Shown one piece after another: positions 38,589 through 55,465 of a stretch of DNA of 64,000 bases. Position numbers and translations under genes: made by a program. The notes under the pieces were generated by a model. It had not been told where the DNA came from, did no database searches, and saw only the letters and a list, made by a program, of their open reading frames with translations. How positions within the stretch are numbered: the stretch's first letter is position 1; each line of letters opens with the position of its first letter. The stretch spans positions 14,273 to 78,272 of the forward strand of contig JAQTPK010000006.1 in NCBI GenBank assembly GCA_028712885.1. The letters run 5' to 3'. This DNA comes from Syntrophales bacterium (GTDB lineage: Bacteria; Desulfobacterota; Syntrophia; Syntrophales; UBA4778).

Positions 38589-40361
38589 TCACCGGCAGGA
38601 GTAAAGCGACAGGAGCCTTTTGAGCACCGTCGAATAATACCGGGCCTGATCCCGGAACTTCCTGCCGTCGCCGGAATCTCCCAGTAAATCGGCGCAGAGG
38701 CATGCGTACCCCAGGCGGAAGGAAAGATAGGCCATTGTATAAAAGGGCAGTTTCGCGGTTATCGACTTGTCTCCCGAGATCTTTGTGTAGCGGCTGATCA
38801 GAAAATCCCTCTGCCGCCGGTCCAGGCCGAATTCGATGCACGCCCCTGCGATATCCCACGCGATGTCCTGGGAGCGGGGGAAAAACTGATCGAGGTGGTG
38901 ATCGAGCCCGTCCGTTTTCATGAAACCGGTCGCCGTGCGCAGCCATTCGTGGGGAAGCATTCTTCCGTCGACGGCAACGGCCTGTCCCGCCTCGAATGTC
39001 CTGTACAAACCTTCGATGCTTTCGAATTTCGAAAGCCACTCAGCTCCCATCGCTTCCTCAATATTGGTTCTCATCATCTCCATCATTTCTTCGGCGGAGG
39101 AGCTTTCCGCCGCCGGGAAATCCGATTTCAGACGGGCGAGATAGGCCGCCATGGTCCCCAACAGGTCCGTGGTGATGATGTCCCTCCGGGAGACCGGACG
39201 TCCGGAAACGAACGGCATGATCAGAAACCCGCTTTTCAGCCCGAGCGCGGGAGGAGCGAATCCCGAAGACGCAAGCGAATCCAGGCGCGCGAGCTTGGAC
39301 CTGCCGTATTTCCCGAGCCCGGCAAATTTCATCAAATACAAGCCGTCCGCCCGCTCTCCCCTCCCGGACCGGAAAAATCTTTTTTCCGAGCAGACGTACT
39401 TTCTCTGTTCATGCTGGGGATGAACGGCGGGATAGTCTTCGGCATTGCTGAAGAATACCCCTCGCCAGTTGCCTGCGGATACGTCTTTGGCGATCGGCGC
39501 CGGGAGGCACGCGTCCAGTCTGCCGGTCCTGATCCAGACGTCTTCGAACGACGCGGCGTATTTCCCGTGCCTGCTCCAGCGCGCCCGGGCCTGCTTATTC
39601 AGAAAATCCGCCCCGTCTGTGTCCCAGCACGGGAAGTAGACGATGCGGTCGTCGGGGATACCCATCTCCGAAATTTTCTGTGCGGCCGATCCAAGTGAAG
39701 AACCGCTCAACCCCGGCCCCTCGTCAATGAGAAGATAGGCCGCCGCGGCCGGCTCCATGAGCGCACGCTGCAGCTCCGGAGACACGAACATTTCTCTCTT
39801 GAACGGATGGCCCCGCGGCCGCAGCGTATAACTGCGGCAGTTGCAGCCCAGTTCTTTCAGCGCAGCGGCGACCACGGCGGACAGGCTGGTCCCGATGCTG
39901 CGGATCCCGATGCAGACGGCCGTTTCGGGCCGCATCTCCGCATGAAAACGGCGGGCGGACTCGAGATAAGTTTCGGGGAATATACCGTAATGCGCGTATC
40001 CTTCCGCAACCCGGGCGCATACGACGGAGGGCAGGCGAAGATTCATAATCCCGCCCAGGATGTCTTTCAACTGATCCAGAACTCCGGCCGTCCCCTCCCC
40101 TCCCCGGGTCCAGGACCTGTGAAATATCTCTCCCGCGCAGAGGGTGGCGGAACGCAGCGCCTGGATTACCGGGTTCAGTGTATCCCTGGCCGGGCTCAGC
40201 GCGTCCGCGAGAGCCGCTTCGAACTCCCCGACCTCGATCAGCAGCTCCACGGCAAGGTCGTGCCCGGTCCGGCCGGCCGGGAACGTCCGGATCAGCTCCA
40301 GCAGCCGCGACCCGATCTCCTGCGGTTCCGAAAACTTTTCCTGTTTTCTGAAAATTATCAT
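38589..40361 (-). CDS. Uncharacterised 590-aa protein: PRTase-like middle region + aminoglycoside/choline-kinase-like C-terminal region
   Basis: Start at ATG 40361 (ATGA overlap). 'AVCIGIRSIGTSLSAVVAAALKELG..AAYLLIDEGPGLSGSSL' resembles a type-I PRTase core. 'LMKFAGLGKYG..GFLIMPFVSGRP' and 'KTDGLDHH..SQDIAWDIAGA' resemble protein-kinase-like-fold lobes. Confidence 0.4.
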   Translation of the reverse strand: MIIFRKQEKFSEPQEIGSRLLELIRTFPAGRTGHDLAVELLIEVGEFEAALADALSPARDTLNPVIQALRSATLCAGEIFHRSWTRGGEGTAGVLDQLKDILGGIMNLRLPSVVCARVAEGYAHYGIFPETYLESARRFHAEMRPETAVCIGIRSIGTSLSAVVAAALKELGCNCRSYTLRPRGHPFKREMFVSPELQRALMEPAAAAYLLIDEGPGLSGSSLGSAAQKISEMGIPDDRIVYFPCWDTDGADFLNKQARARWSRHGKYAASFEDVWIRTGRLDACLPAPIAKDVSAGNWRGVFFSNAEDYPAVHPQHEQRKYVCSEKRFFRSGRGERADGLYLMKFAGLGKYGRSKLARLDSLASSGFAPPALGLKSGFLIMPFVSGRPVSRRDIITTDLLGTMAAYLARLKSDFPAAESSSAEEMMEMMRTNIEEAMGAEWLSKFESIEGLYRTFEAGQAVAVDGRMLPHEWLRTATGFMKTDGLDHHLDQFFPRSQDIAWDIAGACIEFGLDRRQRDFLISRYTKISGDKSITAKLPFYTMAYLSFRLGYACLCADLLGDSGDGRKFRDQARYYSTVLKRLLSLYSCR

Positions 40362-41128
40362 GTCCTCTCCGCCAGGAGTTTCCCACCGTAAACCGAGCGC
40401 ACGAAAATCCGGCCTTTTCCAAGATCTTCGCCCATGCCGAATTCGCGGTCGGCCTTGTGCAGCGATACGCTGTGGAATCCATTCTTTTTCAGCGCTTTCA
40501 TTACCTCGTCCGGAGCATGGCACTTCTGGGATATTCTTACGTCGCTGCGATCCCACCCGGCGCCCCCCCGATGAAAAAGGGTTATATCCGTCCACGCCGT
40601 CTTCTCCCCCGGCGAGTACCCGCCGCGGACAATGCAGGCATCGTCATCTTCCACAATCGCGCATTCTTTCCCCCAGGACGTAAGGTACGCCTCCTCCGTG
40701 TTCAGATCGAACACGAAAACGGCGCCGGGAACGAGGGCAGCCCCCAGGCATTTCAGGACCAGGGTGAAACCGTCCATATCCGGAATGTGATTCAGACTCT
40801 CGAAAGCCGAAAAGGCGCCGTCGCAGCGGCGCGGCACGCTGAAGTTCCTCGCGTCCGCCTGAATGAACCGGGCTCCCGGAACCCTCCGGCGCGCGTAATT
40901 CAGCATATCTCCGGAAATGTCGACTCCGATAATGCCGAAACCCTTTTCCGCGACCGCGTATGCCAGATGCCCGGCGCCGCAGCAAAGATCGAGTACGGCG
41001 CTCCCCGGAAAGAGACCGGGGAAAAGGAGTTTTTCCAGCGCCCTCAGCGCCGGTCCGTGGAAAGCCCCGCCCCAGTATCGGTCATAAAACCGGGAGAATT
41101 TGTCGTAGGTTTCTTCTGCGCGGCTCAA
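40358..41128 (-). CDS. Class I SAM-dependent methyltransferase
   Basis: Motif I 'VLDLCCGAGHLAYAVAEKGFGIIGVDIS'. Post-I 'FIQADARNF'. TTG start. ATGA-type coupling on both sides. Confidence 0.85.
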   Translation of the reverse strand: MSRAEETYDKFSRFYDRYWGGAFHGPALRALEKLLFPGLFPGSAVLDLCCGAGHLAYAVAEKGFGIIGVDISGDMLNYARRRVPGARFIQADARNFSVPRRCDGAFSAFESLNHIPDMDGFTLVLKCLGAALVPGAVFVFDLNTEEAYLTSWGKECAIVEDDDACIVRGGYSPGEKTAWTDITLFHRGGAGWDRSDVRISQKCHAPDEVMKALKKNGFHSVSLHKADREFGMGEDLGKGRIFVRSVYGGKLLAERT

Positions 41129-41739
41129 TGCTCAAACCCCCAGTCGATTCGCCCGGTAGTGTTTATTCCGAGAATGCGCGGTCCGCCGTCTCCCAGCCGG
41201 ATCCCGCTGGCGGAGGCGGGCGCGATTTCGATCCTTTCGATAAAGTCGAGCGGAATTCCCGCGTAATACAGAATGGCGCTTTTGATCACGTCTCCGTGGC
41301 TCACAATTGCGAGAATCCGTCCGGGAAATTCCGCACGGATCCGGTCAAGCTCCGTTATGATCCGGTGCTGAACCCCGATCATCATCTCCCCCCCGGGAAT
41401 TCGCGTCGTGCTGCGGTGATCGTTGAATCCCCGCCATGCCGGGTTCCCGCTAAGGGAAGAGATGCCGCAGCCGGTCCAGTCGCCGAAATCGATTTCGTCC
41501 AGTTCCCTGGAGATCGTTATCCGCGCCCCCGTCCTTTCGGCAATGGATCGCGCGGTTTCGCACGCCCTTTCCAGCGGGCTGCAGAAAATGCCCCCGATCG
41601 GCAGATGGGCAAGGCGCTCCGCGAGCTCCCTTGCCTGCTCCCGCCCTGTCCGGTTCAGGGATACGCCCGTGCTCCGCCCCGCGATGGAAACGCCGACCTC
41701 GTCGCACATGGCGTGCCTTATGAGAATGAATATGGTCAT
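41125..41739 (-). CDS. Histidine phosphatase (phosphoglycerate-mutase-like) family protein
   Basis: Start at ATG 41739 (MTIFILIRHAMCD..). 'RHA' for RHG, 'GREQA', 'SPLERACETA', 'IVSHGDVI'. Confidence 0.8.
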   Translation of the reverse strand: MTIFILIRHAMCDEVGVSIAGRSTGVSLNRTGREQARELAERLAHLPIGGIFCSPLERACETARSIAERTGARITISRELDEIDFGDWTGCGISSLSGNPAWRGFNDHRSTTRIPGGEMMIGVQHRIITELDRIRAEFPGRILAIVSHGDVIKSAILYYAGIPLDFIERIEIAPASASGIRLGDGGPRILGINTTGRIDWGFEH

Positions 41740-42740
41740 GTCCCCGTCTTCCCGGGCTTCAGGAACACACGATAATTCCGTCGGGGCTCCGGGTTCCACT
41801 TCATCTTGTACTCCTCGTCTCCGCGCAGAAAATCGAATTCCCTCACACCTTCGCCGATCGCCTCTTCAATGGCATGCTCCAGCAGCACCATTCCCGGACT
41901 GCAGCGGCCCATTTCGGGATCAAAACCGCTCAAATAGCAGTAAACCCGCCCTCCCCGCTGAAATGAGTACAGGGCGGCTGCGGGCCGGTTCCCCAGGTTC
42001 ATTCTGTACAGACGCAAAAGGCCCCTCTTCAGCATTCTTGAGCAGACTTCGCCGTGAAAGGATCTCATCACTTCTCCCTGAAGCACTCCCGGCTGGCGGA
42101 TCTCCGCCCAGCGGCGGCCGTGCAGCGAAAAGAGCGCATCCAGAAATGAATCGAGAGTATCCGCATCGGGCGTTTCTATCTCCGCGGGGCCGGATTCCCG
42201 GAGCAGGCGTTTCGCCCGGCGGAGATTGTTGCGGTGTTTATTCGCCAGCACCCGGAGATACAGCTCCATGCTTTCCGGAAGCGCGACGACAAACCGGAGA
42301 TTGTGGGGCTCAATCTTCATTCTGCACGCCGCGGTCAAGTCCGCCCGCAGCAGCGGGGAGTCGGCGGAGACTTCCTGGAGATCGCATCCGTCGAGAGGTC
42401 CGAGCCCGCGCGCGATGCTCTCGCACAGGCAGGCCGCCGCCTGCAGGCTCGAATCCGGACGAATGAGAAAATCCAGACAGTCGGATACCCCGGTCCCGAT
42501 GAAAAATGCTTCGCTGCGCCCGTTTTTTTCGCTGATGTAAAGAGGCGCTATCCCTGCCGGTCCGGAATCATCCCGGACCAGGTGCGCCCAGACCTTTCCG
42601 GCGCCGAAATTCTTCCACCAGGGAATAAGCCAGTCGGGCGACTGAAACGGGCTCGCGCCGGGACACCTGGTCCACAATTCAAGCCATTCGGCCTCGAACC
42701 GTTCCAGGTCCTCTGACGATGAGAGAATACGCGCGTCCAT
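41736..42740 (-). CDS. GNAT-fold acyltransferase, CelD/BioF2-like (Acetyltransf_6)
   Basis: Start at ATG 42740 (MDARILSSSEDLERFEAEWLELW..SPFQSPDWLIPWW). C-terminal 'REFDFLRGDEEYKMKW'. The upstream half of the 698-aa track ORF is an Arg-rich overprint of the GT4 gene and is rejected. Confidence 0.75.
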   Translation of the reverse strand: MDARILSSSEDLERFEAEWLELWTRCPGASPFQSPDWLIPWWKNFGAGKVWAHLVRDDSGPAGIAPLYISEKNGRSEAFFIGTGVSDCLDFLIRPDSSLQAAACLCESIARGLGPLDGCDLQEVSADSPLLRADLTAACRMKIEPHNLRFVVALPESMELYLRVLANKHRNNLRRAKRLLRESGPAEIETPDADTLDSFLDALFSLHGRRWAEIRQPGVLQGEVMRSFHGEVCSRMLKRGLLRLYRMNLGNRPAAALYSFQRGGRVYCYLSGFDPEMGRCSPGMVLLEHAIEEAIGEGVREFDFLRGDEEYKMKWNPEPRRNYRVFLKPGKTGT

Positions 42741-43825
42741 TACCGTTCGCTCACGCCTTTCAGCCGTTCCGTCTCGAGCTCTCTCTCTGCGATACGGCGG
42801 TAGAGGGCAAAGTATTCTCCGGTCATCCGCTCCGAGGAAAACCTTCGCCGGGCTGTTTCCCTGCACAAATCCGAGTCCAGACTTCCGGCCGCCCGGATGG
42901 CTTCGGCCATTTCTTTTGTGTCCGCGACCAGAAACCCCGTCCTGCCCTCGTCGACTATTTCCGGCAGCGCTCCCGAAGGGAAGGCGACGACCGGGGTTCC
43001 GCTGGCAATGGCTTCCATCGCCGACAGCGAGCTCGTCTCCGGGGCGAGGCTGGGCGCCAGCAGGCATCCCGCTTCCCCGAGCAACCGGATTTTTCCCGCC
43101 CCGCCCACCGCACCGAGAAAGCGGCATCTTTTCCCATCCAGCCCCGGCCGCACAACATCCCGGAAATACGCGAGATGCTCGGGATAGGGAAAAACTGTTC
43201 CGGCGATCGCCAGCGGTATCCCGGCCGCCCGTGCGGCTGCCATCCCAAGGTGCACGCCTTTTTCCGGGCAGATCCTGCCCAGCATCAGGGCGAAATTCCT
43301 TTTCGCAAACTTTTTCATGTACTTCCCGACCGGAACGCCGTTCTTTATGACCCCTAAGTTCCCGGCGGGACAAGGACAGGAACGCCGCTGAGAATCCGAA
43401 ACGCAGACGAGGTAAGTGCCGCGCCTCTTCGGCGCCAGCGCATCCGGCCCGTACCACGCAGGCGGGAGATGAAGAGTGGCCAGCACGGGAACCCCCTCGG
43501 GTGGAAGATAACGGTCGAAGTCGATCCCATGCATATGGACGAGGTCGATCCGCCACTTTCCGAGCGCCTCGTTTATGGCGCGGTAAGCCGCGGCTTGCGA
43601 TTCCCTGCGGGCCCGCTCGTCGAAAATCGATGCGGGCGGGGAAATCCGGACCAGGGTCCCCGCAGTACTTGAGCCTTCCGGCGCGATGACGATCGACATC
43701 CCTCCCGCGTCCGCCAGGGCGGAATCGAGCATGGACAAAACCTGCTCCGCCCCCCCGGCCGTATCGGAACGGACCGGAGCGAGGGGATAGGCGACGCTCA
43801 ACACGGTTATCATGCCACGCCTCAC
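42740..43825 (-). CDS. Glycosyltransferase family 4 (GT-B)
   Basis: 'ITVLSVAYPLAPVRSDTAGGAEQVLSML' and C-terminal 'APSLAPETSSLSAMEAIASGTPVVAFPSGALPEIV' (EX7E-type region). Confidence 0.85.
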   Translation of the reverse strand: MRRGMITVLSVAYPLAPVRSDTAGGAEQVLSMLDSALADAGGMSIVIAPEGSSTAGTLVRISPPASIFDERARRESQAAAYRAINEALGKWRIDLVHMHGIDFDRYLPPEGVPVLATLHLPPAWYGPDALAPKRRGTYLVCVSDSQRRSCPCPAGNLGVIKNGVPVGKYMKKFAKRNFALMLGRICPEKGVHLGMAAARAAGIPLAIAGTVFPYPEHLAYFRDVVRPGLDGKRCRFLGAVGGAGKIRLLGEAGCLLAPSLAPETSSLSAMEAIASGTPVVAFPSGALPEIVDEGRTGFLVADTKEMAEAIRAAGSLDSDLCRETARRRFSSERMTGEYFALYRRIAERELETERLKGVSER

Positions 43826-44709
43826 GACACATACCGGCGGACCATTCTGGAGCAGAAATCCGCGTAGGACTCCACCTCCCGGGGCGGACTGGTGTGGTGC
43901 GGGCGAACCCCTTTCTCCTCCGGCGTGAAACAGAAGGTCAGCGTGGTATCAAACTTTTCCAGCGCCTTCATCTGCCTGTCGAACCAGGCGTCCGCATCGG
44001 GACGGAAGCTGTCCGCCCAACTCAGTCCCGTGCGCAAATGCCTTACCCCGAGTCTCTCGAGCCAGAGGACTGCATCCCGCAGCCGATGGTCCTCGAAATG
44101 AAACCACTGGCATATGCCCATTTCGGGCGTATAGAGATGAAAACGCGCCAGCGCCTTTTTAGGCGAGCCGTCCTCGCGCAGAAGTCCCATATAGAAATGG
44201 CGGTAATAGGACGATCCTTCCGCCTCCCTATGCCTCGTCGTAGCCGGCCACGTCTTCGGCAGATCGAAAAGGCTGTACCAGTGGATGCGGGGCGTCTTCC
44301 CGATAAGGAGCTCGGCGGTTCTGCGCAGTCCGAACTCCTGGATCTCTTCGGCCCCGAACGTGGAGACTCCTGCTTCCGATACCCACACGGGGAGGGATGT
44401 AACGGTCCGGATTTCGTCGATCCTGTCCGGCCATTCATGAATGGCCCAGTGGTTCCAATCCAGTGGAAACCCGTGCACGGCGACGGCGTCCACGAGATTG
44501 AGGACCCCTTTCCGCCGCATGTTTTCAATAAACCTCGCGTCGATCGGCGAAATCCCCCCCAGGATCCTCTTGACCCGGGGGCATTCCGCGATAACGGCTC
44601 CGGCGGCGGTTTTCACCATTCTGGCATAGATATCCCAGTCGGGGTCCATTCCGAAATCCCAGTGGGACAGGTTGTTCGGCTCGTTCCAGAACATGACCGC
44701 TTCAACCAT
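43822..44709 (-). CDS. Clan GH-A-like (beta/alpha)8 glycoside hydrolase, apparently circularly permuted
   Basis: 'FWNEPNN' (acid/base motif) lies at residues 7-13. 'VWVSEAGVS' (nucleophile motif) lies near residue 112. The C-terminal ~100 aa ('ICQWFHFED..GVRHLRTGLSWADSFRP..TLTFCFTP..YADFCSRMVRRY') resemble strands 1-3 of such barrels. Confidence 0.6.
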   Translation of the reverse strand: MVEAVMFWNEPNNLSHWDFGMDPDWDIYARMVKTAAGAVIAECPRVKRILGGISPIDARFIENMRRKGVLNLVDAVAVHGFPLDWNHWAIHEWPDRIDEIRTVTSLPVWVSEAGVSTFGAEEIQEFGLRRTAELLIGKTPRIHWYSLFDLPKTWPATTRHREAEGSSYYRHFYMGLLREDGSPKKALARFHLYTPEMGICQWFHFEDHRLRDAVLWLERLGVRHLRTGLSWADSFRPDADAWFDRQMKALEKFDTTLTFCFTPEEKGVRPHHTSPPREVESYADFCSRMVRRYVS

Positions 44710-45451
44710 GCCGCGCCTCCATTATTTTTCTGCAGATGAAAACTTCCTCCTCGGGCCTTTCGGTAATCGAGAATCCCGCGCTCCGGAGCATTGCCTCGGC
44801 GCAGGCTCGATTGGGGATCCACCAGTTGGTCGGGTCCCCGGCGTATTTTTCCTCGATAAAGTACATCTGCGGAAACCCCGGCTCCAGGAAGACGTCCTTT
44901 TCCCAGAACTCGTAATCCACTTCGACCGGTGTTCCGTTCCTTTCCCCCCTGAGCATCGTCTGGAAAACGAAAAAATCCTTTACGACGTGCTTATTGATCA
45001 GGTCCAGGGCAAGCAGGGGATGGCGCAGGTGATAGAGCACGCCCAGAAAGAGAACGAGGTCGAACTTTTCGCGCAGGTCCGCTATCTCGTAAACCGACAT
45101 TTCCCGGAATTCTATTTCGATCCCGCAGATTTCGGCCGCGAAGCGCGCCTGCGCAAGGTACCCCTCGTCGTTGTCTATACCGACCACGCGGCTCGCCCCC
45201 CGCCGCTTCATTTCTATGGAATAGAATCCGGCGTTGCACCCTATATCCAGAACGGTCCAGCCGCTGAGGTTTCGCGGGATGGAGCCGGAAAACTTTTTCC
45301 ATTTATTGGCCGGATAGTCGCCGAGAAAATGTCCGGGGGCGGTAATGACGCCGTTCAAATCGATGTTCTGGAACCATTCCCCGAGATCGCGTATCCGTCG
45401 GCTGATCTCCGCCTTGCTCAATTTTCCGCTCCCCGCCGAATCTCCCGCCAC
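44702..45451 (-). CDS. SAM-dependent methyltransferase, CmoB/DUF1698-like
   Basis: 'RIRDLGEWFQNIDL..G', 'VLDIGCNAGFYSIEMKRRGASRVVGIDND', 'FDLVLFLGVLYHLRHPLLAL', 'NWWIPN'. Confidence 0.8.
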   Translation of the reverse strand: MAGDSAGSGKLSKAEISRRIRDLGEWFQNIDLNGVITAPGHFLGDYPANKWKKFSGSIPRNLSGWTVLDIGCNAGFYSIEMKRRGASRVVGIDNDEGYLAQARFAAEICGIEIEFREMSVYEIADLREKFDLVLFLGVLYHLRHPLLALDLINKHVVKDFFVFQTMLRGERNGTPVEVDYEFWEKDVFLEPGFPQMYFIEEKYAGDPTNWWIPNRACAEAMLRSAGFSITERPEEEVFICRKIMEARHG

Positions 45452-45457
45452 GTCGCG

Positions 45458-47268: not shown

Positions 47269-47315
47269 TAAGCGTTCTCTCAGTCGCGTCGGAAAAGCGG
47301 GGATTACGGACGGGA

Positions 47316-48386
47316 TCAGCCGCCCGACAGCTCGGAAACGTATTCTTCAAGCTGGGCCGCCCTGTGCGCGGCCGTATGCTCCGAAAGCACCCGCAGCCGC
47401 GCCCGCTCGCCGATCAGGTATCTTTCTGTCTCGGGCATATCGCGTATCATCTCGAGCGTCTCATCGGCGGTGCGCGAAATCAGAATTTCCCTGTCCGGTT
47501 CGAAAATGGTTTCTATTCCGTCCCAGTAATCGCTGATAATGGGAATCCCGCAGCCCGCGGCTTCGAAGAGCCTGACGCTGGGAGAGTATCCCGCCGCAAC
47601 CATTGCGCTCCTGGTTATATTGAGGGTAAACCGCTGCGCGCCATAGAAGAGCTTGTGCTCGGCGGGATGAAGGTGGTGGACCCTGGCGACGTTCGCCGGC
47701 CAGACGGTCTCTTTCGGGTACATCGGCCCGGCGGCGATGAACCGGCCTTTTTGCCAGCGGCGGGCCGGCTGGAGCATCAGCTCTTCAAGGGCAACCTGGC
47801 GATCCTTGCTGTAGGTGCCCATGTAACCGAGATCCCAGACCTGCTCGCAGCAAACGGGATAATATTCAGCCGGGTCGAATGAGCAGAAAAAAGCCCTGGG
47901 CATTTTCGCCCTGAACTTCAGCGCCAGGACCTCCAGCGTCGGGCCTCCCGTAAAAGAAAGGTACAGATCGTAGGCAGGGATCAGCTTCCTGGTTATATAG
48001 CCGGGGCTGCCGTTTTCCAGCATTGCGAGCGTCACGGGAGTGTCGATATCGTAAAATGCCTTTATGCCGCCTGCGGTCCGGATGACCCACTCGCCGATTT
48101 CGGACCCGTCCGGAACGTACGAGCCGACTATTACCAATTCCGCTTCCCGTATTTCGGACACAAACCTGTCCTTCAGGTCCTTAAAGTCCCGGTACAGCCG
48201 AATCCGCCCGCAATCCCGCGGGCTGTCCCTGTTTGCGGCGTACCATGGGACGTCGCGCTCGAGAAACGTGACTTTATGCCCCCTTTCCGTGAGCTCCCGC
48301 GAGAGGCCGCGATAAGTCGTAGCATGCCCGTTCCCCCATGATGACGTGATTGACAGCCCCAGAATGACAATCTTCAGAGGATGCAT
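47316..48386 (-). CDS. CgeB-like glycosyltransferase, paralogue B
   Basis: Start at ATG 48386 (MHPLKIVILGLSITSSWGNGHATTYRGL..). 'FEAAGCGIPIISDYWDGIETIFEPDREILIS'. The 90 upstream track codons overprint paralogue C and are rejected. Confidence 0.7.
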   Translation of the reverse strand: MHPLKIVILGLSITSSWGNGHATTYRGLSRELTERGHKVTFLERDVPWYAANRDSPRDCGRIRLYRDFKDLKDRFVSEIREAELVIVGSYVPDGSEIGEWVIRTAGGIKAFYDIDTPVTLAMLENGSPGYITRKLIPAYDLYLSFTGGPTLEVLALKFRAKMPRAFFCSFDPAEYYPVCCEQVWDLGYMGTYSKDRQVALEELMLQPARRWQKGRFIAAGPMYPKETVWPANVARVHHLHPAEHKLFYGAQRFTLNITRSAMVAAGYSPSVRLFEAAGCGIPIISDYWDGIETIFEPDREILISRTADETLEMIRDMPETERYLIGERARLRVLSEHTAAHRAAQLEEYVSELSGG

Positions 48387-48388
48387 TT

Positions 48389-49453
48389 TCAACGGATTCC
48401 TCCATTGAACAGCATCTCGAGCTGCTCGGCCCGGTGCCGGTAGGTGTGTTGCGCCAACACTCTCCGCCTTGCGGCTTCGCCGATCCGCTTTGCGCCTCCG
48501 GGAGTCAGTCTCTCCAGCGCTTCGGCGACTTCGTCGCCGCCGCGGACCGTGATAACCTCCCGGCCGGGATCCAGAAATATTTCCATGCCCTCCCACCAGT
48601 CGGAGATTATGCAAGATCCCGCTCCGGCCGCCTCGAACACGCGCGTAGCCGGACAATAGCCGTAACAGGCCATGCTTTCGCGGCTGATGTTCAGAACGGC
48701 GCCGACACTCGAGTTGAATTCGTTGTGCTCGTCCGTATATACGTGCCCCAGCAGGCGCACATTAGCCGGCAGGCTGCGTTCTTCCCAGCCGCTCCCGCCG
48801 AGGAGAAACGATCTGCCGGGGCATCGTTCGGCTGCCCGGAAGAGAAACTCCTCCACCCTCTTTTCCCGGTCAGGCAAACGGTTTCCCAGAAATCCCAAAT
48901 CCGCCGCGAAGCGGGATGACGCGGGCACGGGATAATGGGTTGTAGAATCCAGCGCGTTGTATACCGGTACGCAATCCCGCGCGCCGTATTGCCGGTAGGC
49001 CCGGGCCACCGGTTCTCCTCCTCCATAGGTGAGGATCAGATCGTAACGGGGTATGAGAAGCCGGAAGGGATCGTTCCGGTTGCGGCCGATGCGGTCCAGC
49101 GTGGCGGGCGCGTCCACATCCCAGAATATTACCGAAGCAGGGGCTTTCTCCAGCACTGCAGATTCCAGGTATTCGTCAAAAACCCCGACCCCGCTCGCTT
49201 TAACAATCAGGTCGGCCTGCCCGGCTTCTTCGAGAGCCGAATCCACACCCGGCCGGGATGCCTCATAAACCACCACCCTGGCCCAGGCCGGGTCCGGGAT
49301 GTCCCGGTGCTGCTGGCGTCCATACGCGTCAGGCTCGTAAAAAGTGACACGGTGGCCCCGCAGATCGAGCTCCCGGATTATGCCGCGATAGTAGGTGGCT
49401 GCGCCGTTCCAGTACGCCGAAACCAGGCTTGAACCGAAAAAGGCTATTTTCAT
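48389..49453 (-). CDS. CgeB-like glycosyltransferase, paralogue C
   Basis: Start at ATG 49453 (MKIAFFGSSLVSAYWNGAATYYRGI..; ATGA overlap). 'FEAAGAGSCIISDWWEGMEIFLDPGREVITV'. Confidence 0.7.
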   Translation of the reverse strand: MKIAFFGSSLVSAYWNGAATYYRGIIRELDLRGHRVTFYEPDAYGRQQHRDIPDPAWARVVVYEASRPGVDSALEEAGQADLIVKASGVGVFDEYLESAVLEKAPASVIFWDVDAPATLDRIGRNRNDPFRLLIPRYDLILTYGGGEPVARAYRQYGARDCVPVYNALDSTTHYPVPASSRFAADLGFLGNRLPDREKRVEEFLFRAAERCPGRSFLLGGSGWEERSLPANVRLLGHVYTDEHNEFNSSVGAVLNISRESMACYGYCPATRVFEAAGAGSCIISDWWEGMEIFLDPGREVITVRGGDEVAEALERLTPGGAKRIGEAARRRVLAQHTYRHRAEQLEMLFNGGIR

Positions 49454-50583
49454 GCATTCAGAACGCATCTTTTCTCCCCGTGTCCCGACGAATCCCTGCA
49501 GCCGATCTCGCGGCAGATATGCATAAGCTGATCAACCCTGTGAGCGCATGTATGCCGGCTGAGGACTGTCTCCAGCCCGGAAACCGAAAGCGAACGCGCC
49601 GTGTCAGGGTCGTTCAGAACCTGAAAAATCATTGCGGCGGTTTCGCTGCCGTTTTGAGCAATGAGAAAATCACGTCCGGGGCGAAACAGCCCCTCCGTAT
49701 CCTCCCAGGGGGAGCATATCAGCGGTATCCCGCACGCCAGGGCTTCAAAAACCCGGATCGTGGGTATTCCCCTGAGGTGCGTCACGTAAGGCCGGCGCGG
49801 AACGTGCAGCGCGGCCCGGAAGCAGGAAAAGATTTCCGGGACGCGGTAATTCGGGATCCACCCCTCGTAATCCAGTCCGGCCTCCTTGAGTCTGGTGCGG
49901 GCTTTATCGGGATACCTGACGCCGAAGGCGGCCGCCTTCAAATTAAGCATCCGGACCGGCCCAACGAGAAACTCCTCCAGCTCGCGGCTCCTTTCCCCGT
50001 CCCCCCAGTTCCCTATCCAGACCAGGTCCCGGAAACGTTCTCCCGCGTGCGGCCGAAAAAGACGGGTGTCCGCAGCTTCGTGCCAGACGAATACCCGCCC
50101 CGCCCAGTCCCTGGCTAGATAAAGTTGACGGACGGATTCGCCGAATGCCAGGACGCCGTCGTAACCGGACAAATCGCAAGCGGCGATTGCGTCCGGCTCG
50201 GTGATGGATCGGTGATGAGTGTCATGAAACAGAACACGCAAGGACGCATTCCCGGCCCGGTGCATGCCGATACGGGTCACAAGCTCCCGCGGGTTCCATT
50301 CGTGCACAATCGCCAGATCCTGCCGGTCCAGCTCCGCTTCAAGATCAATATGATCCAGCCGGTACCGCCTCACGCGCAGCTCCGGAAACATGAGGGCTGC
50401 CTCGCTCAATGCGGAAGCGCCGTGCTCCTGTACCAGGTTCCGGACGCTCCAGGCATTTTCTTCCTCGTACACCGATACATCGTGGCCCCGACCCGATAAC
50501 TCCCGTGCAACCCCGCGCAGAAAGTGGGCGTTGCCGTGATTCCAGTCGGAGAGAATCGAATGGCAGAAAATGGCTATTCTCAT
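49450..50583 (-). CDS. CgeB-like glycosyltransferase, paralogue D
   Basis: 'MRIAIFCHSILSDWNHGNAHFLRGV..RGHDVSVYE' and 'FEALACGIPLICSPWEDTEGLFRPGRDFLIA'. Confidence 0.7.
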   Translation of the reverse strand: MRIAIFCHSILSDWNHGNAHFLRGVARELSGRGHDVSVYEEENAWSVRNLVQEHGASALSEAALMFPELRVRRYRLDHIDLEAELDRQDLAIVHEWNPRELVTRIGMHRAGNASLRVLFHDTHHRSITEPDAIAACDLSGYDGVLAFGESVRQLYLARDWAGRVFVWHEAADTRLFRPHAGERFRDLVWIGNWGDGERSRELEEFLVGPVRMLNLKAAAFGVRYPDKARTRLKEAGLDYEGWIPNYRVPEIFSCFRAALHVPRRPYVTHLRGIPTIRVFEALACGIPLICSPWEDTEGLFRPGRDFLIAQNGSETAAMIFQVLNDPDTARSLSVSGLETVLSRHTCAHRVDQLMHICREIGCRDSSGHGEKRCVLNA

Positions 50584-50589
50584 ATCCGC

Positions 50590-51744
50590 TCACTGGAGAC
50601 TGCGGGGCTTCGGTTGAAAAATCCCGTTTTGCCGGGGCCGGAAATAACCTTCGTTGAGATGCCACCCTTCCAGCAACTCGCGGTAAATCGCAAGATATCC
50701 CGCAGCCATCTGCGATGGGGTGAACTCAAGCGCCCTGCTTCGGGCCCGGGCCGCCATTTCCCTCCTCAGGCCGGGTTTCGAGATCAGAATCTCCACTGCT
50801 CCCCGGAAATCTTCCTCGTCACGGGGCTCCACAAACATCGCAGCGCCGTCCCAGATCTCCCTCAGGCTCGGAATATTCCCGAGAACCAGCGCGCAGCCGC
50901 AGAGGGCCGCCTCGAGCGGCGTATACCCGAAAGGCTCGTAGAGCGCCGGCAGGACGTAGATGGAGGCCCGCGCAAACCAGGCCGAGAGTGAAGAAGCGGA
51001 AAGCTGTCCGAGGGAACGGATCGGGGATCCGGACGGCATTTCGCCGCGGTCTTCGCCGGCGGCATATACAGGCCAGGACAGTTTCGGGGCCGCCCTTATG
51101 ACGGTCCGCAGGTTCTTGGCCTCATCCCATAGTCTTCCGGCCATAAGGATTATTTCTTCCTTTCGGCCGGGGCAGAACACCCTCGGATTCCTTCCGTTAT
51201 ACACGACCCGGCCGGAAGGAATTTCCCCGTAATGCTTGTAGAGCATCCACATCATGGCCTTAGACGGGCTCACGACGATGTCCGACGAGAACAGGCCTCC
51301 GGCTACGATCCGCCGGTAGGCATCCCAGTACGCAGGAGCGGGCCCGCCGTAAACGGCGTCCCACCAGGAAAGCACGCAGGAGTGCCCCACAACTATTTTC
51401 GGACTTTTCCAGGGGAGCGAGGCATGGGCAAAGCCGTTCAGATGGATTATTTCAGGGCGAAGTTTTTCCTCCAGGTCAAGCAGCCAGGCTCCCGCTCTTT
51501 CCACATCCGCCCAGGAATCCTCCATCCATTCCAGCTTGTATTCCCCTTCATGAAGCTGAATATCCGGAATGCGCCCGGCTTCTTCGCGCCGGCCGGCCGT
51601 GAGCGGGGCGCCCATTACGGCCAGCGAGGTTTGTATCCCGTAATCGGAGAGGGCCCTGGCCAGTTCGAGAGAATACGTCCAGACTCCGCCGACGGCATCG
51701 GCCGTCATTAAAACGCGTCCCGGCTTCGGATCATATCGGTACAT
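50590..51744 (-). CDS. Glycosyltransferase family 4 (GT-B)
   Basis: 'VLMTADAVGGVWTYSLELARAL' and 'PALYEPFGYTPLEAALCGCALVLGNIPSLREIW' (E-x7-E region). Confidence 0.8.
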   Translation of the reverse strand: MYRYDPKPGRVLMTADAVGGVWTYSLELARALSDYGIQTSLAVMGAPLTAGRREEAGRIPDIQLHEGEYKLEWMEDSWADVERAGAWLLDLEEKLRPEIIHLNGFAHASLPWKSPKIVVGHSCVLSWWDAVYGGPAPAYWDAYRRIVAGGLFSSDIVVSPSKAMMWMLYKHYGEIPSGRVVYNGRNPRVFCPGRKEEIILMAGRLWDEAKNLRTVIRAAPKLSWPVYAAGEDRGEMPSGSPIRSLGQLSASSLSAWFARASIYVLPALYEPFGYTPLEAALCGCALVLGNIPSLREIWDGAAMFVEPRDEEDFRGAVEILISKPGLRREMAARARSRALEFTPSQMAAGYLAIYRELLEGWHLNEGYFRPRQNGIFQPKPRSLQ

Positions 51745-51750
51745 AATGTT

Positions 51751-53031
51751 TTATCTCCTTTCCAAAATTGAAAGCGGCAGAGGTTTCCTGGTTTGAAGAT
51801 CGCTGAGTATCGGATTGGTTTCGAGATAATAACCGAGCGCTTTTTCCCATGCCTCCTCATCGGGCTCTCCCCACCGGAGGCTGTATTCGCGGCTGCCCGG
51901 GTAAGGAAAGAGGGGCACGGGGTCATTGATCCATACCCCCCGGTCCCGCAGGGTGCTTGACCACTGCGCGATTTCCGAGGGATCATCTCCTGTTTCCATC
52001 AAGGTAGCCTGGACAAAAGGAATTTTCTTCCTTGCATATGCGAGGCGTTCGATCAGGCGGCCTCCGTCGAGCCGCGAAGTCTTTTGCAGCCTGCTCCGGC
52101 CCCGGGAGGTTATGCTCTCCACCCCGGCTTCGATGGAAACGCATCCCGCCCCGCCCAGTCTGTCCAGGCCCGCTTCGCTCCAGAAATCTATCCGCGTCTG
52201 GACTCCGAAACGAATGTTCCTCCGCTCCAACTCGCGCAGAAATTTCCGGTCCGGAAGAAAGATCTCGTCAATAAAATAGATGTAGCGGACCCCCCTTTCG
52301 ATCAGGCAGTCAAGCTCCGCCAGCACCTTCTCCGCGGGCCTCCTCCTGTATTCGCCCCGGAAATTATTTCTTGCGCAGAAAGTGCACCCGAAAGGGCAGC
52401 CGCGGGATGACTCGATTTCGGCTCCGAGCCCCGCCCCGGCGCCCGCATCGAACCGGTGGTGGTGATGAATATGCCTGTCGAGCAGACGCTGCGGCCAGGT
52501 GATTGCCGGAAGCGCGGAAAGGTCGGCAACCGCAGTGCCGGGATTCAGCCGAACCCCGCTCTTTCCGGCAAAGGCGAGGCCGGGGACTCTTTCCCATTCC
52601 GCCCTCCCGTCGAGAAGGTGCAGAACCGATTCGAATTCACCGACAACGGCAATGTCCGCCTCCATTTTTTTCAGCACGGCCGCGGGAGTCACGGACGCGT
52701 GCGGCCCGACGGCGATGAGCGTCGCCCCGATTGGGCTCAGCAATCTCGCGGTCTGCATGGGAACGCGCAGCTCCGGCTGAGGACAGCGCCAGAAGAGATA
52801 TGTCGGAGCGGTCGCAATGATTATGAAATGCGGCGAAAAGTATTCTGCTTTCTCCACCAGCTCAAACGGAGAAATACTCTCAAGGTGCGCGTCAAGGATA
52901 AGTACGGCATGCCCCTCCCTCTCGAGTACGGCGCCGGCATATCCGAATTCCAGCGGAAGATGGGGCTCCCGGCAGCCGAAATAAACGCTGCCTTCGAAAT
53001 CCCAATCCGGATTGACCAGGGCGTATCTCAT
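51751..53031 (-). CDS. B12-binding-domain radical SAM enzyme (second one in window)
   Basis: 'HAVLILDAHL..PHFIIIATAP..LIAVGPHASV' is the cobalamin-binding-like domain. 'SSRGCPFGCTFCARNNF' is the CxxxCxxC cluster. Confidence 0.8.
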   Translation of the reverse strand: MRYALVNPDWDFEGSVYFGCREPHLPLEFGYAGAVLEREGHAVLILDAHLESISPFELVEKAEYFSPHFIIIATAPTYLFWRCPQPELRVPMQTARLLSPIGATLIAVGPHASVTPAAVLKKMEADIAVVGEFESVLHLLDGRAEWERVPGLAFAGKSGVRLNPGTAVADLSALPAITWPQRLLDRHIHHHHRFDAGAGAGLGAEIESSRGCPFGCTFCARNNFRGEYRRRPAEKVLAELDCLIERGVRYIYFIDEIFLPDRKFLRELERRNIRFGVQTRIDFWSEAGLDRLGGAGCVSIEAGVESITSRGRSRLQKTSRLDGGRLIERLAYARKKIPFVQATLMETGDDPSEIAQWSSTLRDRGVWINDPVPLFPYPGSREYSLRWGEPDEEAWEKALGYYLETNPILSDLQTRKPLPLSILERR

Positions 53032-54119
53032 CGGACCCCCGTCTCCCGAACCAGCGAAGTCCCGATCCTCGGATAATTGCTCGCAAGCCAGTCATAAAGA
53101 GCCCGGACTCCCGGACCTATGCCGGTCTTCGGCTGCCAACCGGTGGCTTTCCTGAATTTTCTGAAATCCGAAGAATAGTAACCCTGGTCGCCCGGCCTGG
53201 AGTCCTCCCGGCGTGTCTCGGGAATCCGTCCGTGAATCTCGCTGATCAAATCCATCATTTCGAGGAGGCTGATCGTGTTCGCCGCCCCTCCTCCGATATT
53301 GAAGGCCTGCCCCGAAAGGCGCTCCATGGAGGCCCGCGCCAGCAGGAAAGCCTCGACCAGATCATTGACGAAAAGAATGTCCCGGACCTGAAGCCCGTTA
53401 CCATATATGGAAACCGGCTTCCCCGTGAGGGCGCATATGAGGAAGTGGGCAACCCAGCCCTGATCCTCGGTCCCATACTGATGCGGGCCGTAAATACAGC
53501 TCATGCGGAATACCGCGGCCTGAAGTCCGTAGATCCGGGCATACCCAAGCACGTACTGGTCGGCCGAACCTTTCGAGCATCCGTAAGGACTGTGGAAATC
53601 CAGAGGACTGTTTTCATTTATTCCATGGATGAGCACCTGCAGATCCTGCGGCTCATAGCGGGTCCCGTTCCCTTGCAGGGCCAGATTGTCCAGGGGGCCG
53701 TAAACCTTGTTGGTCGAAGTGAATATGAGAGGAGGCGGATTCCCGATGGCGCGGACTGCTTCGAGCAGATTGAGGGTGCCAAGGAGGTTCTGCTGGAAAT
53801 CAAAAAGCGGTTCGTGGACGCTTGTCGTCACCGCCACCTGGGCGGCGAAGTGGAAGACGAAATCCGCCCGCTGCACGGCATTGCGAAGTTTTTCCGCGTC
53901 CCGGACGTCGGCTATCTCCACGTCAAGACCGGCTCCGAACCGCTTGGCGAGCCATTCAAGATTTCTCCTCGCACCTTTTCTGACCAGGCTGTCGTAGACT
54001 ATTACCTTTTCCCCAAGCGCCAGGAGGCGCGCCGAAAGGTTTGTGCCTATGAAGCCTGCGCCGCCTGTGATCAGGACGGCTGGAGATTCCGACATCTCCC
54101 CGCGTGCGCTCCCGCTCAT
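53028..54119 (-). CDS. Extended-SDR NDP-sugar epimerase (CDP-paratose 2-epimerase-like)
   Basis: 'VLITGGAGFIGTNLS', 'TSTNKVYG', 'YGCSKGSADQY' (YxxxK), 'MSCIYGPHQYGTEDQGWVAHF'. Confidence 0.8.
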   Translation of the reverse strand: MSGSARGEMSESPAVLITGGAGFIGTNLSARLLALGEKVIVYDSLVRKGARRNLEWLAKRFGAGLDVEIADVRDAEKLRNAVQRADFVFHFAAQVAVTTSVHEPLFDFQQNLLGTLNLLEAVRAIGNPPPLIFTSTNKVYGPLDNLALQGNGTRYEPQDLQVLIHGINENSPLDFHSPYGCSKGSADQYVLGYARIYGLQAAVFRMSCIYGPHQYGTEDQGWVAHFLICALTGKPVSIYGNGLQVRDILFVNDLVEAFLLARASMERLSGQAFNIGGGAANTISLLEMMDLISEIHGRIPETRREDSRPGDQGYYSSDFRKFRKATGWQPKTGIGPGVRALYDWLASNYPRIGTSLVRETGVR

Positions 54120-55231
54120 ACTGTCAACCTCCTGTCCGCCAGCTCGGCGGCCGCCCTGAGAACGCCGTCATGAGGCTTTTGTTTTTCGAGCCAGGATGCG
54201 AGATCGGCCAGACCCCTGTTGAAATCCACTTCGGGCTGGTAACCCAGCAGCTTGCCTGCCAGGGCGATATCGGCAAAACAATGCCTTATATCCCCGACCC
54301 GATACTTGAAGGTGATCTTGGGCCGGGTCTTTTCCCGACCCAGCACGACGGCCATCTGCTCGGCTACCGACAGGATCGTGCGGGAATCGCCGCTTCCTAT
54401 ATTGAATACATTTCCCGCCGCCTCGGGTACCTCAAGGGCAAGACGGCAGGCGCGAGCCACATCGTGAACGCTTACCAGGTCCCTCTTCTGGTTTCCGTCT
54501 TCGAAGATCAGAGGCGGATTGCCGTTCAGCAGTCTTGAGGCGAAGATAGCCAGTACGCCCGTATACGGATTCGACAGGGACTGCCGGCTTCCGAACACGT
54601 TGAACAGCCGGAGGGCGACTGTGGGGATTCCATATGCCTTTCCGATAATAAGGCACATCCGCTCCTGATGGTATTTCGACAGGGCATAGATCGACGCCAG
54701 GGAAGGCGGCTTATCTTCGGGCGTGGGAATCGGCTTCAGGAGAAAACCGTTTCTGCGTATCTCCCACTCCCCCTCCCTCAGCTGTTCCAGCGGCCGCTCC
54801 GCGATATGGCAGATCTCGCCCTTTTCGTTTTCGTACAAACCCTCGCCGTAAACGCTCATGCTGGAAGCCAGCACCAGACGCTCTACGGGCTGCTCGATCA
54901 GAGCTTCGAGGAGAACGGCTGTCCCCTGGTTGTTTACGCTCGTATACTTTTCTATCTGGTACATGCTCTGCCCCACCCCGACCGCTGCGGCGAAATGAAA
55001 AACCGCATCCACCCCGGTAAGGGCTTTGCGGACGAGGATCGGGTCGCGTACGTCCCCCACTACCAGTTCCACTTCCGGATTCAGGTAATCCGGCCTGCGG
55101 GCGGCGGAGCCGTGAACCTGGCTCATCAGATTGTCCAAGGCCCGGACGCTGTAGCCGTGGTCGATCAGTTCGTCTGCGAGATGGGAACCGATGAAGCCGG
55201 CCCCGCCAACAATCAGGACTTTTTTCTTCAT
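54116..55231 (-). CDS. Extended-SDR NAD-dependent epimerase/dehydratase
   Basis: 'KVLIVGGAGFIGSHLADEL', 'ASSMSVYG', 'YALSKYHQE' (YxxxK). First gene of the 16-gene operon. Confidence 0.85.
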   Translation of the reverse strand: MKKKVLIVGGAGFIGSHLADELIDHGYSVRALDNLMSQVHGSAARRPDYLNPEVELVVGDVRDPILVRKALTGVDAVFHFAAAVGVGQSMYQIEKYTSVNNQGTAVLLEALIEQPVERLVLASSMSVYGEGLYENEKGEICHIAERPLEQLREGEWEIRRNGFLLKPIPTPEDKPPSLASIYALSKYHQERMCLIIGKAYGIPTVALRLFNVFGSRQSLSNPYTGVLAIFASRLLNGNPPLIFEDGNQKRDLVSVHDVARACRLALEVPEAAGNVFNIGSGDSRTILSVAEQMAVVLGREKTRPKITFKYRVGDIRHCFADIALAGKLLGYQPEVDFNRGLADLASWLEKQKPHDGVLRAAAELADRRLTV

Positions 55232-55320
55232 TTAGGAACCCCCGTACAACGTGGATCCCGGTAAGGACGGATTCAATCGCTGCCGCCTGAACGGGTTCCT
55301 GCAAAATACCGCGCAGGATT

Positions 55321-55337
55321 TTGCATTTAGCATGCCC
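55321..55337 (-). promoter_or_regulatory. Candidate sigma-54 (-24/-12) promoter for the 16-gene operon
   Basis: The minus strand reads 'gGGCAtGctaaaTGCAa' against the consensus TGGCACG-N4-TTGCW. GG and GC are at the correct 10-nt spacing, about 90 nt upstream of ATG 55231. No enhancer-binding protein is in the window. Confidence 0.3.
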
Positions 55338-55465
55338 GACATGCCGGCCCCTTGGGGATAAAACCTGACCGGGCATTTATTCATCTGGAATTCTGATCTC
55401 TTATTTTTCCGAACAGATATCCTTTGATGCGGCGCAAAGGACGGAAGACAAAAAAGTGTAGATCA

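Follow-up and report, generated by a model that had tools for sequence, protein, structure and literature searches.

A 16-gene glycan operon from a Syntrophales bacterium and its place in a widespread TIGR04290/TIGR04295 cassette family

In mycobacteria, the polymethylated polysaccharides known as methylglucose lipopolysaccharides (MGLP) and methylmannose polysaccharides (MMP) are assembled in the cytoplasm by soluble glycosyltransferases (GTs); methyl and acyl groups are added, and a hydrolase takes part, as does a histidine phosphatase whose target is the phosphorylated primer. The early steps of mycothiol synthesis employ an inositol-3-phosphate synthase (Ino1), the GT4 enzyme MshA, the phosphatase MshA2, the PIG-L deacetylase MshB and the GNAT enzyme MshD. 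In plants, the galactinol/raffinose-family pathway leads from inositol synthesis, through a glycosyl-inositol intermediate and a glycoside hydrolase (GH)-type transglycosylase, to soluble, stress-protective oligosaccharides. Here, these systems are compared with a run of 16 consecutive genes, g01 to g16, that extends from position 55231 down to 38589 on the minus strand of a 64,000-nucleotide stretch of Syntrophales DNA (contig JAQTPK010000006.1 of assembly GCA_028712885.1; hereafter, the window). The genes form a single compact transcription unit, the Syntrophales version of a widespread modular cassette. Considered as a whole, the cassette family is independent of exporters, and outside the Syntrophales-type lineage it travels without export or priming genes.

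A compact operon in a widespread, exporter-independent family

A first-pass annotation, made from the sequence alone, had described g01-g16 as a tightly packed glycan operon, and the open reading frame (ORF) listing agrees: adjacent genes either overlap by 1-8 nt or lie no more than 47 nt apart. That annotation had counted eight ATGA-type overlaps. There are nine 4-nt overlaps (five ATGA, one GTGA and three TTGA), together with single overlaps of 8 nt and 1 nt, three gaps of 6 nt and one of 47 nt; these counts apply to start codons chosen for the tightest packing, and the exact number of overlaps varies with that choice. Pfam and NCBIfam scans matched the domains that had been listed for the 16 genes. 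A Kyte-Doolittle scan correctly flagged the neighbouring Wza, Wzz and priming transferase, whereas none of the 16 proteins showed a convincing transmembrane (TM) helix or signal peptide, again as had been claimed. All 16 cassette products are soluble.

The cassette in the window passes two family models, TIGR04295 (g03) and TIGR04290 (g10), which bears out the tentative suggestion in the first-pass annotation that cassette-specific models exist. The same annotation had considered such a pathway surprising for this type of organism, a view that the distribution does not support. At 63-72% identity, g10 has at least 8000 clusters of relatives, which include proteins of Acidobacteriota, Verrucomicrobiota, Longimicrobiales, Clostridia and Bradyrhizobium. 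When one genome per GTDB species is taken, the cassette is carried by at least 595 species genomes in many phyla, including Desulfomonile tiedjei, and it is found on 132 plasmids, among them Sinorhizobium pSymB, R. etli p42b and plasmids of Azospirillum, Roseomonas and Paracoccus. Searches of the literature found no mention of TIGR04290, TIGR04295, rhizo-twelve or Rta_06860, and searches that combined enzyme names or addressed stress regulons returned nothing on the cassette genes.

The architecture of the family was surveyed by mapping the window proteins onto 95 loci with tblastn, and presence was counted in the 41 loci with full 10-kb flanks. Both g10 and g11 occur in all 41, in the case of g10 by construction, as it was the query. 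The histidine phosphatase g14 is present in 37, g04-g07 in 33-34, g01/g02 in 29, g08 and g09 together in 29, and g03 in 26. The remaining genes are accessory: g12/g13 occur in 8 loci, g15 in 2 as well as in the Syntrophales-type relatives, and g16 in 2. From these loci and from annotated plasmid loci, the synteny common to the window and other carriers comprises the short-chain dehydrogenase/reductase (SDR) genes, the GT4 gene, the CgeB-like GT genes, the nucleotidyltransferase, a GH-like barrel and the histidine phosphatase. The Bradyrhizobium cassette has a 12-gene core plus extras. The window cassette belongs to the uncharacterised TIGR04290/TIGR04295 neighbourhood, of which it represents an enlarged form. 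It shares its gene blocks with Bradyrhizobium, Azospirillum, R. etli p42b and Sinorhizobium pSymB, where the GH barrel is annotated as 'beta-xylosidase', but adds g12, g13, g15 and g16. Unlike some copies elsewhere, it lacks genes for an inositol-3-phosphate synthase and a PIG-L deacetylase and, unlike almost all others, it lies beside exopolysaccharide (EPS) export genes.

No exporter, flippase or priming enzyme was found inside 38589-55231 by Pfam, NCBIfam or hydropathy, and to this extent an earlier claim that such functions are missing stands; it fails for the immediate surroundings, where Wza, Wzz, Bac_transf and Wzx are encoded on the same strand. The first-pass annotation was to be given up if homologous cassettes proved always to be linked to exporters. 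Such constant linkage was not seen: homologues of the window's Wza, Wzz, ATPase, kinase and Bac_transf lie within 10 kb of g10 in none of 80 genome loci. Among ORFs up to 5 kb from the cassette ends in 48 loci, 20 of 241 have three or more hydrophobic segments. Neither Poly_export, Wzz, Bac_transf nor flippase families are among the 25 commonest Pfam families of the 140 nearest flank ORFs, a set in which ABC transporters appear twice and PAS/histidine-kinase sensors nine times. Neighbours in individual loci include sensor kinases, cytochrome oxidases, thrS-rplT-pheT and tig-clpPX, and in L094 and L095 the cassette is bordered by housekeeping genes. Export linkage is absent as well in L081, L085-L089, L094 and L095. 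Export or priming genes adjoin the cassette in four loci only, L090-L093, which represent three distinct Syntrophales-type relatives. Genes for terminal oxidases (coxB/ctaD or cyoABCD) are found within a few kilobases of the cassette on three alphaproteobacterial plasmids that are not related to one another (L085 31354-34274, L086 1026-5223 and L087 18988-23070).

The boundaries of the operon offer few regulatory signals. Upstream of g01, the AT-rich intergenic region of 658 nt (55232..55889, minus strand) is the presumed promoter region. A consensus scan found no convincing sigma-70 site on its minus strand, and promoter and terminator consensus scans returned fewer sites than shuffled sequence. 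No RNA family in the window reached the Rfam gathering thresholds, and hence there is no B12 or S-adenosylmethionine (SAM) riboswitch. At the other end, a spacer of 372 nt (38217-38588) separates g16 from wza. About 100 nt past the g16 stop it holds a perfect hairpin with a 19-bp stem (38451..38488, minus strand), a possible terminator between the cassette and wza; RNAfold gives -33.5 kcal/mol for the 81-nt stretch that contains it. A simple terminator scan missed this hairpin because it has no T-run, and it is not conserved in L090. The same spacer carries a motif, TTCAGGTAT..GAA....AAAATCAGG......GATAG, that is kept before wza in four Syntrophales-type loci (the window, L090 at 11771-12166, L093 and L092) and may be a site through which the EPS export operon is regulated. 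The G+C content is 0.60 in the cassette and 0.56-0.58 in the flanks. A recent transfer, read from this composition, was considered and rejected as uninformative, as the G+C content of third codon positions is the same in both (0.67-0.74).

Predicted activities of the 16 products

Both SDR proteins are of the epimerase type, in line with the original assignment and as supported by comparisons with the PDB. The first, g01 (54116..55231), is an NDP-sugar epimerase of the extended SDR type (Pfam Epimerase, 1.9e-52) that carries an insertion at about residues 131-167, and its best PDB matches are epimerases of the GalE/WbpP type. The second, g02 (53028..54119), resembles CDP-tyvelose 2-epimerase, a C2 epimerase of nucleotide sugars: PDB entries 9rl0 and 1orr match it over the full length with 287 and 277 bits, respectively, whereas the next match scores 143 bits. 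The best NCBIfam match of g02 is to dTDP-glucose 4,6-dehydratase. Such an assignment was ruled out, since g02 is twice as close to CDP-tyvelose 2-epimerase and has the motif STNKVYG rather than the dehydratase TDE. An RmlA-like hexose-1-phosphate nucleotidylyltransferase is encoded by g09 (45458..46207; Pfam NTP_transferase), whose best PDB matches are glucose-1-phosphate thymidylyltransferases. The B12-binding radical SAM enzyme g03 (51751..53031) matches TIGR04295 over its full length at 578.1 bits, against a cut-off of 400, and has a CxxxCxxC motif at residue 212.

Six GTs are encoded. The GT4 enzyme g04 (50590..51744; Pfam Glycos_transf_1 and Glyco_transf_4) has as its closest solved relatives sucrose-phosphate synthase (SPS), PimA and MshA, which are GT4 enzymes that use phosphorylated or inositol acceptors; g04 is proposed to be the first, or priming, transferase. 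It is followed by the conserved block g05-g06-g07, in which g05 (49450..50583; PF13524, 1.8e-32) is a CgeB-like GT of the GT-B fold and g06 (48389..49453; 2.2e-37) and g07 (47316..48392; 1.5e-35) are likewise CgeB-like. A fourth CgeB-like GT, g08 (46204..47268; 1.2e-37), travels with g09. The sixth, g12 (42740..43825), is an accessory GT4 similar to BshA and MshA, as indicated by Pfam and by partial NCBIfam matches to both. It is always paired with g13 (41736..42740), an accessory FemAB/CelD-like GNAT acyltransferase (PF13480, Acetyltransf_6, 1.8e-39).

The signature gene of the cassette, g10 (44702..45451), encodes a methyltransferase of the CmoB fold that scores 375.4 bits against TIGR04290 (cut-off 300). 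Its best PDB match is the sugar O-methyltransferase EvdMO1 (5t38), and the NCBI label of an identical protein, assigned there to a Syntrophales metagenome-assembled genome, is "TIGR04290 family methyltransferase". A further SAM methyltransferase, the class I enzyme g15 (40358..41128; Methyltransf_25, 1.2e-14), is a rare accessory. The histidine phosphatase g14 (41125..41739; His_Phos_1, 4e-44) belongs to branch 1. It scores 178.9 against TIGR03848, which is under the cut-off of 203.85, and its PDB matches include phosphoserine phosphatase and the glucosyl-3-phosphoglycerate phosphatase GpgP (4pz9, E 9e-9). The last gene, g16 (38589..40361), encodes a 590-aa protein with no Pfam match, which belongs to a family with 1718 relatives at E<=1e-10 and has homologues beside the cassette in S. 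meliloti pSymB and Desulfomonile tiedjei. Its AlphaFold2 (AF2) model (predicted local distance difference test, 91; predicted template-modelling score (pTM), 0.90) retrieves choline kinases in Foldseek (E 4e-8), and the C-terminal half is predicted to have the fold of choline/ethanolamine kinases and aminoglycoside phosphotransferase (APH). Of an earlier description as phosphoribosyltransferase/kinase-like, the kinase part therefore holds; a phosphoribosyltransferase-like N-terminal domain could not be confirmed, and this domain is uncharacterised.

The product of g11 (43822..44709) is the best conserved of the cassette, with 72-79% identity across phyla and a nearly constant length of about 295 aa. 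Its Pfam match (Glyco_hydro_cc) is weak and, in native order, it has no sequence match in the PDB. The AF2 model (pTM 0.80) consists of eight beta/alpha units, and Foldseek with this model returned only generic TIM barrels at a TM-score of about 0.4, and no glycosidase, because of a permutation. When g11 is re-ordered so that residues 194-295 precede 1-193, residues 10-286 match the GH39 enzyme PslG at E 7e-5. In addition, R. etli p42b encodes a paralogous domain, fused to an SDR of the g02 type, in which the counterpart of g11 residues 194-293 precedes that of 2-190, as in the canonical order. Thus, g11 opens with the NEP strand, and the canonical N-terminus corresponds to the last 100 residues of the protein. 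Judged from sequence and model, g11 reads as a circularly permuted member of GH39 (clan GH-A), with a (beta/alpha)8 barrel, a predicted acid/base Glu in NEP and a predicted nucleophile Glu. Since both of these, Glu10 in the NEP motif (WNEPN) and Glu112, are invariant across relatives, the enzyme is probably catalytically active, a finding in keeping with the trimming hydrolase that had been suggested. Similar fusions of a canonical-order g11 paralogue to an SDR occur in L018, L026 and L081. The comparison of domain order involves window 43822-44709 and L087 8479-9351.

The relationship to PslG, the GH39 endoglycosidase of the Pseudomonas Psl locus, extends nearly from end to end of the re-ordered protein, with both catalytic Glu residues kept. 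However, g11 is permuted, lacks a signal or anchor, is cytoplasmic and is far more conserved across phyla than enzymes of the PslG type. Elsewhere in the window, at 57386-58564, a 392-aa protein with no Pfam match starts with GVNYWP and is weakly similar to g11 in canonical order (E 0.007); it is probably another GH-A-type barrel.

A proposed cytoplasmic product and its rivals

Taken together, these results are best read as a pathway to a methylated product that is assembled on a phosphorylated primer, and this primer is probably an inositol phosphate. The chance that this product is a small oligosaccharide or glycoside of the cytoplasm, plausibly with a protective role under stress, is about even. 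A phosphorylated or inositol primer is favoured because 45 of 80 genome loci, in several phyla, encode an inositol-3-phosphate synthase within the cassette, a PIG-L deacetylase accompanies g12/g13, g04 lies near SPS, PimA and MshA, and g14 lies near GpgP. The synthase gene directly adjoins that of the histidine phosphatase on Bradyrhizobium and Azospirillum plasmids. In S. meliloti strain ml46 pSymB (L088 2878-3901), an inositol-3-phosphate synthase sequence beside the phosphatase matches in two pieces with no annotated gene, and it may be a pseudogene in this strain. The PIG-L deacetylase, which is of the MshB type, is encoded between g11 and g12 in 16 genome loci and in L092 (5561-6397) and L094 (7104-7952), and it is nearly always accompanied by g12 and g13. 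In the window (g12 at 42740-43825), as in the loci nearest to it (L090, L091 and L093), g12 and g13 occur but the deacetylase gene does not.

An inositol-based primer is also compatible with a glycolipid. In this model, the cassette decorates a membrane lipid, such as an inositol phospholipid, much as in the phosphatidylinositol mannosides of mycobacteria, with soluble GT-B enzymes working at the inner membrane face. The frequent inositol-3-phosphate synthase, the presence of PimA among the nearest solved relatives of g04 and the PIG-L family deacetylase of some variants are all consistent with such a role, and the phosphatase could act on a phosphatidylinositol phosphate. However, no CDP-alcohol phosphatidyltransferase or other conserved membrane protein is encoded in or beside the cassette, and its conserved core contains no acyl or lipid-handling enzyme. 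A glycolipid is consequently regarded as a distinctly improbable product.

The stress-protective role is proposed because of a promoter motif upstream of alphaproteobacterial cassettes. The sequence GGAAC-N16-17-CGTT is the EcfG-type consensus of the general stress response in this class. It lies 55-225 nt before the first gene of cassette operons: 28 of 94 upstream windows carry it, covering 25 of 40 alphaproteobacterial loci, against an expectation of about 0.012 hits per window and an occurrence of 2 in 126 windows from other phyla. Genera with the motif include Bradyrhizobium, Propylenella, Variibacter, Rhodoplanes, Roseiarcus and Inquilinus. EcfG-type promoters are thus predicted for the alphaproteobacterial homologues, a prediction that does not apply to the Syntrophales window. 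Among L009-L085, the motif precedes the inositol-3-phosphate synthase gene, g08 or g01, for example at L085 14329, L057 6318, and L070 6212 and 13122. Stress genes, namely those for CsbD, Mn catalase, BON and a nutrient-deprivation-induced protein, lie near the cassette on rhizobial plasmids.

The slot of g03 appears to be filled in more than one way. The g03 gene is present in 40 loci, a Zn-dehydrogenase gene in 13 and a Gfo/Idh/MocA gene in 10, and g03 never occurs with either of the others. In several loci, the Zn-dehydrogenase gene, alone or with the Gfo/Idh/MocA gene, occupies the position between g02 and g04. This pattern suggests two routes to one chemical step, perhaps an anaerobic and an NAD-dependent one. 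The loci of the dehydrogenase type that are listed against the g03 carriers are L012, L015, L017, L038, L041, L044, L052, L054, L080, L087 and L088.

The alternation of a radical SAM enzyme with a Zn-dehydrogenase recalls that of BtrN and NeoA in the 2-deoxystreptamine pathways, and it raises the possibility that the cassette makes a secreted, cyclitol-containing pseudo-oligosaccharide by an aminoglycoside-like logic, with release by an unlinked transporter. The repertoire of the cassette (a cyclitol synthase, NDP-sugar enzymes, radical SAM enzyme or Zn-dehydrogenase, APH-fold kinase and phosphatase) does parallel that of such clusters. Nevertheless, there is no associated aminotransferase, resistance gene or transporter, and high conservation in hundreds of species from many phyla is atypical of antibiotic clusters. 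The stress-sigma promoter motif, moreover, favours physiology over antagonism. Such a secreted product is therefore considered very unlikely.

The cytoplasmic product favoured here could be made as follows. The RmlA-like g09 would make an NDP-hexose, which would be epimerised by g02, of the C2-epimerase type, and by g01. The first sugar would then be placed by g04 on a small phosphorylated acceptor. In most genomes, this acceptor is probably myo-inositol 3-phosphate from the cassette-encoded synthase; in the window, it would be supplied from elsewhere or be a different compound. The histidine phosphatase g14 would remove the phosphate, and the CgeB-like g05-g08 would add up to four residues. 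O-methylation of the product is assigned to g10, and g03 may carry out a radical modification, a step that would elsewhere be performed by the Zn-dehydrogenase and the Gfo/Idh/MocA oxidoreductase. Trimming or transglycosylation could be due to g11. The accessory proteins would provide decoration, with g12 adding a hexosamine-type residue, g13 an acyl group, g15 a second methyl group and g16 a phosphate. The product would most likely remain in the cytoplasm, as a stress protectant or a reserve.

It should be noted that several considerations weigh against this proposal. No paper on the cassette was found, and no product has been seen. The roles given to g03, g11 and g16 derive solely from fold or family. 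The absence of TM helices is no proof of a cytosolic product, as lipid-linked pathways, too, use soluble GT-B enzymes. In addition, the 64-kb window contains neither an inositol-3-phosphate synthase gene nor one for PIG-L, and what points to EcfG is a sequence motif from a different class of bacteria. Finally, the surroundings of the cassette in the Syntrophales genome must be taken into account. On the same strand, it sits within a glycan super-locus of about 47 kb, with genes for ManC, GT4 and GH130 upstream and those from Wza through Wzx downstream. The order cassette-Wza-Wzz-Bac_transf is kept in L090/L091 (78% identity in g16), L093 (49%) and L092 (44%), where the 16-gene variant is followed by Wza-Wzz-ATPase-kinase-Bac_transf. 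Adjacency of cassette and EPS export genes is thus old and stable in Syntrophales-type genomes.

Given these findings, it could be argued that the Syntrophales cassette is part of the surrounding Wzx/Wzy-dependent EPS locus of PEP-CTERM type. It would then contribute special nucleotide sugars or a side branch that bears methyl or acyl groups, for assembly on a lipid carrier primed by Bac_transf, and export would proceed via Wzx, Wzy and Wza. The lack of TM helices agrees with this idea, as the EPS GTs of the cytoplasmic face normally have none. However, no other examined locus, from many phyla, has export or priming genes nearby, and between g16 and wza there is the 372-nt gap with its 19-bp hairpin. 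The classical Wzx/Wzy pathway has no place for a histidine phosphatase or a small-molecule kinase fold, nor for the inositol-phosphate synthase of other cassettes. Moreover, the core proteins are 63-79% identical across phyla, unlike strain-variable EPS genes. A Wzx/Wzy locus would be recognised by consistent export linkage and, inside the unit itself, by a polyprenyl-phosphate priming transferase, a flippase, a polymerase and Wza/Wzz; neither was found. An EPS role, although the strongest rival reading for this window, is rated as unlikely. The exporter-independent cytoplasmic glycan of the first-pass annotation has survived the export-linkage test at the level of the family, and it is uncertain for this lineage.

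The neighbouring genes themselves have the following arrangement. The Wza-type export protein (37527-38216, minus strand), whose gene starts 372 nt downstream of g16, is followed by a Wzz/GNVR chain-length protein (36134-37588, minus strand), an AAA_22 ATPase, a tyrosine-kinase-like P-loop protein and the Bac_transf priming transferase (32941-34074, minus strand). The best NCBIfam matches of these genes are to XrtA/PEP-CTERM exopolysaccharide families, all below cut-off. Beyond Bac_transf lie sugar-modifying enzymes, a second B12-binding radical SAM enzyme, three GT2s, a 7-TM protein and a Wzx-type flippase with 13 TM helices (14312-15865, minus strand). This second radical SAM enzyme (29081-30556, within 27071-30556) is unrelated to g03, and its best partial matches are ApyD, BchE and HpnJ. 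It adjoins an ATP-grasp protein and a phosphatidylserine-decarboxylase-like protein, and the trio also follows the priming genes in L090 and L093. Upstream of the cassette are genes for ManC, the 392-aa protein, which is unassigned, a GT4, a GH130 and an aldo-keto reductase. Divergent from the aldo-keto reductase, GH130, GT4 and ManC genes is one for a 571-aa fusion (61728-63443, plus strand) of a HAD sugar-phosphatase (Hydrolase_3/S6PP-like) with a HerA/DUF87-type P-loop NTPase.

Comparison with characterised pathways

The likeness to MGLP and MMP synthesis that was suggested by the first-pass annotation is one of logic, and membership is not supported. Cytoplasmic assembly by soluble GTs on a phosphorylated primer, methylation, acylation, a hydrolase and a histidine phosphatase would be common to both, and g14 resembles GpgP at the family level only. 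However, none of the 16 proteins matches a GpgS-type or other MGLP/MMP family model in NCBIfam at E<=0.001, and sequence searches with g10 and g11 found no MMP methyltransferase or hydrolase among their PDB matches. MGLP synthesis would be marked by glucosyl-3-phosphoglycerate synthase (GpgS) and GpgP, and MMP synthesis by ManT, MeT1, MeT3 and the hydrolase MmpH; within these searches, homologues of GpgS, ManT, MeT1 and MmpH did not turn up. Furthermore, the cassette has just one or two SAM methyltransferases, and the phyla differ.

The early steps of mycothiol synthesis provide a closer parallel, as the same enzyme classes recur across the cassette family. Nevertheless, the cassette has no MshC-type ligase and adds four CgeB-like GTs, methyltransferases, a radical SAM enzyme and the GH39-like barrel. 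In the window, g04 and g12 fall far below the MshA and BshA cut-offs of mycothiol and bacillithiol synthesis, and Ino1, PIG-L and Cys ligase are absent. By analogy, therefore, the logic of the cassette would be somewhat like that of MGLP/MMP and closer still to the first mycothiol steps, with no support for membership in either. Another inositol-related system is the 11-gene 'gdh' cluster of photosynthetic Bradyrhizobium for the O-antigen of bradyrhizose, an inositol-fused sugar (PMC4743980). The published gdh primers and translated motifs match none of the examined cassette loci, a weak comparison that is confined to these primers and motifs.

With respect to plants, the inositol-3-phosphate synthase, phosphatase, GTs, GH barrel and stress motif of the cassette family could be seen as a functional analogue, and a functional analogue only, of the galactinol/raffinose pathway. 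A bolder hypothesis extends this analogy to a nearly pan-bacterial class of cytoplasmic stress metabolites. In this model, the GT4 and the four CgeB-like enzymes build a methylated oligosaccharide on an inositol or equivalent polyol phosphate, the permuted GH39 transglycosylase reshapes it, EcfG switches its synthesis on in Alphaproteobacteria, and the radical SAM and two-dehydrogenase routes are interchangeable. The product would be the bacterial counterpart of galactinol and the raffinose oligosaccharides. In this full form, the hypothesis must be called rather unlikely.

An orphan pathway of 12-16 genes, with proteins that are 63-79% identical across Acidobacteriota, Verrucomicrobiota, Alphaproteobacteria, Desulfobacterota, Nitrospirota and others, represents a sizeable gap in bacterial glycobiology. 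The comparisons have also brought to light a GH39 barrel that is permuted in nature and what appears to be an exchange of radical SAM enzyme and dehydrogenases in a single gene slot. Handles on the pathway are now available in the form of carriers amenable to experiment (S. meliloti pSymB, R. etli p42b, and Azospirillum and Bradyrhizobium plasmids), a likely inducer (general stress) and a likely primer (inositol 3-phosphate). The cassette does not amount to a wholly new kind of pathway; rather, it is a very widespread orphan.

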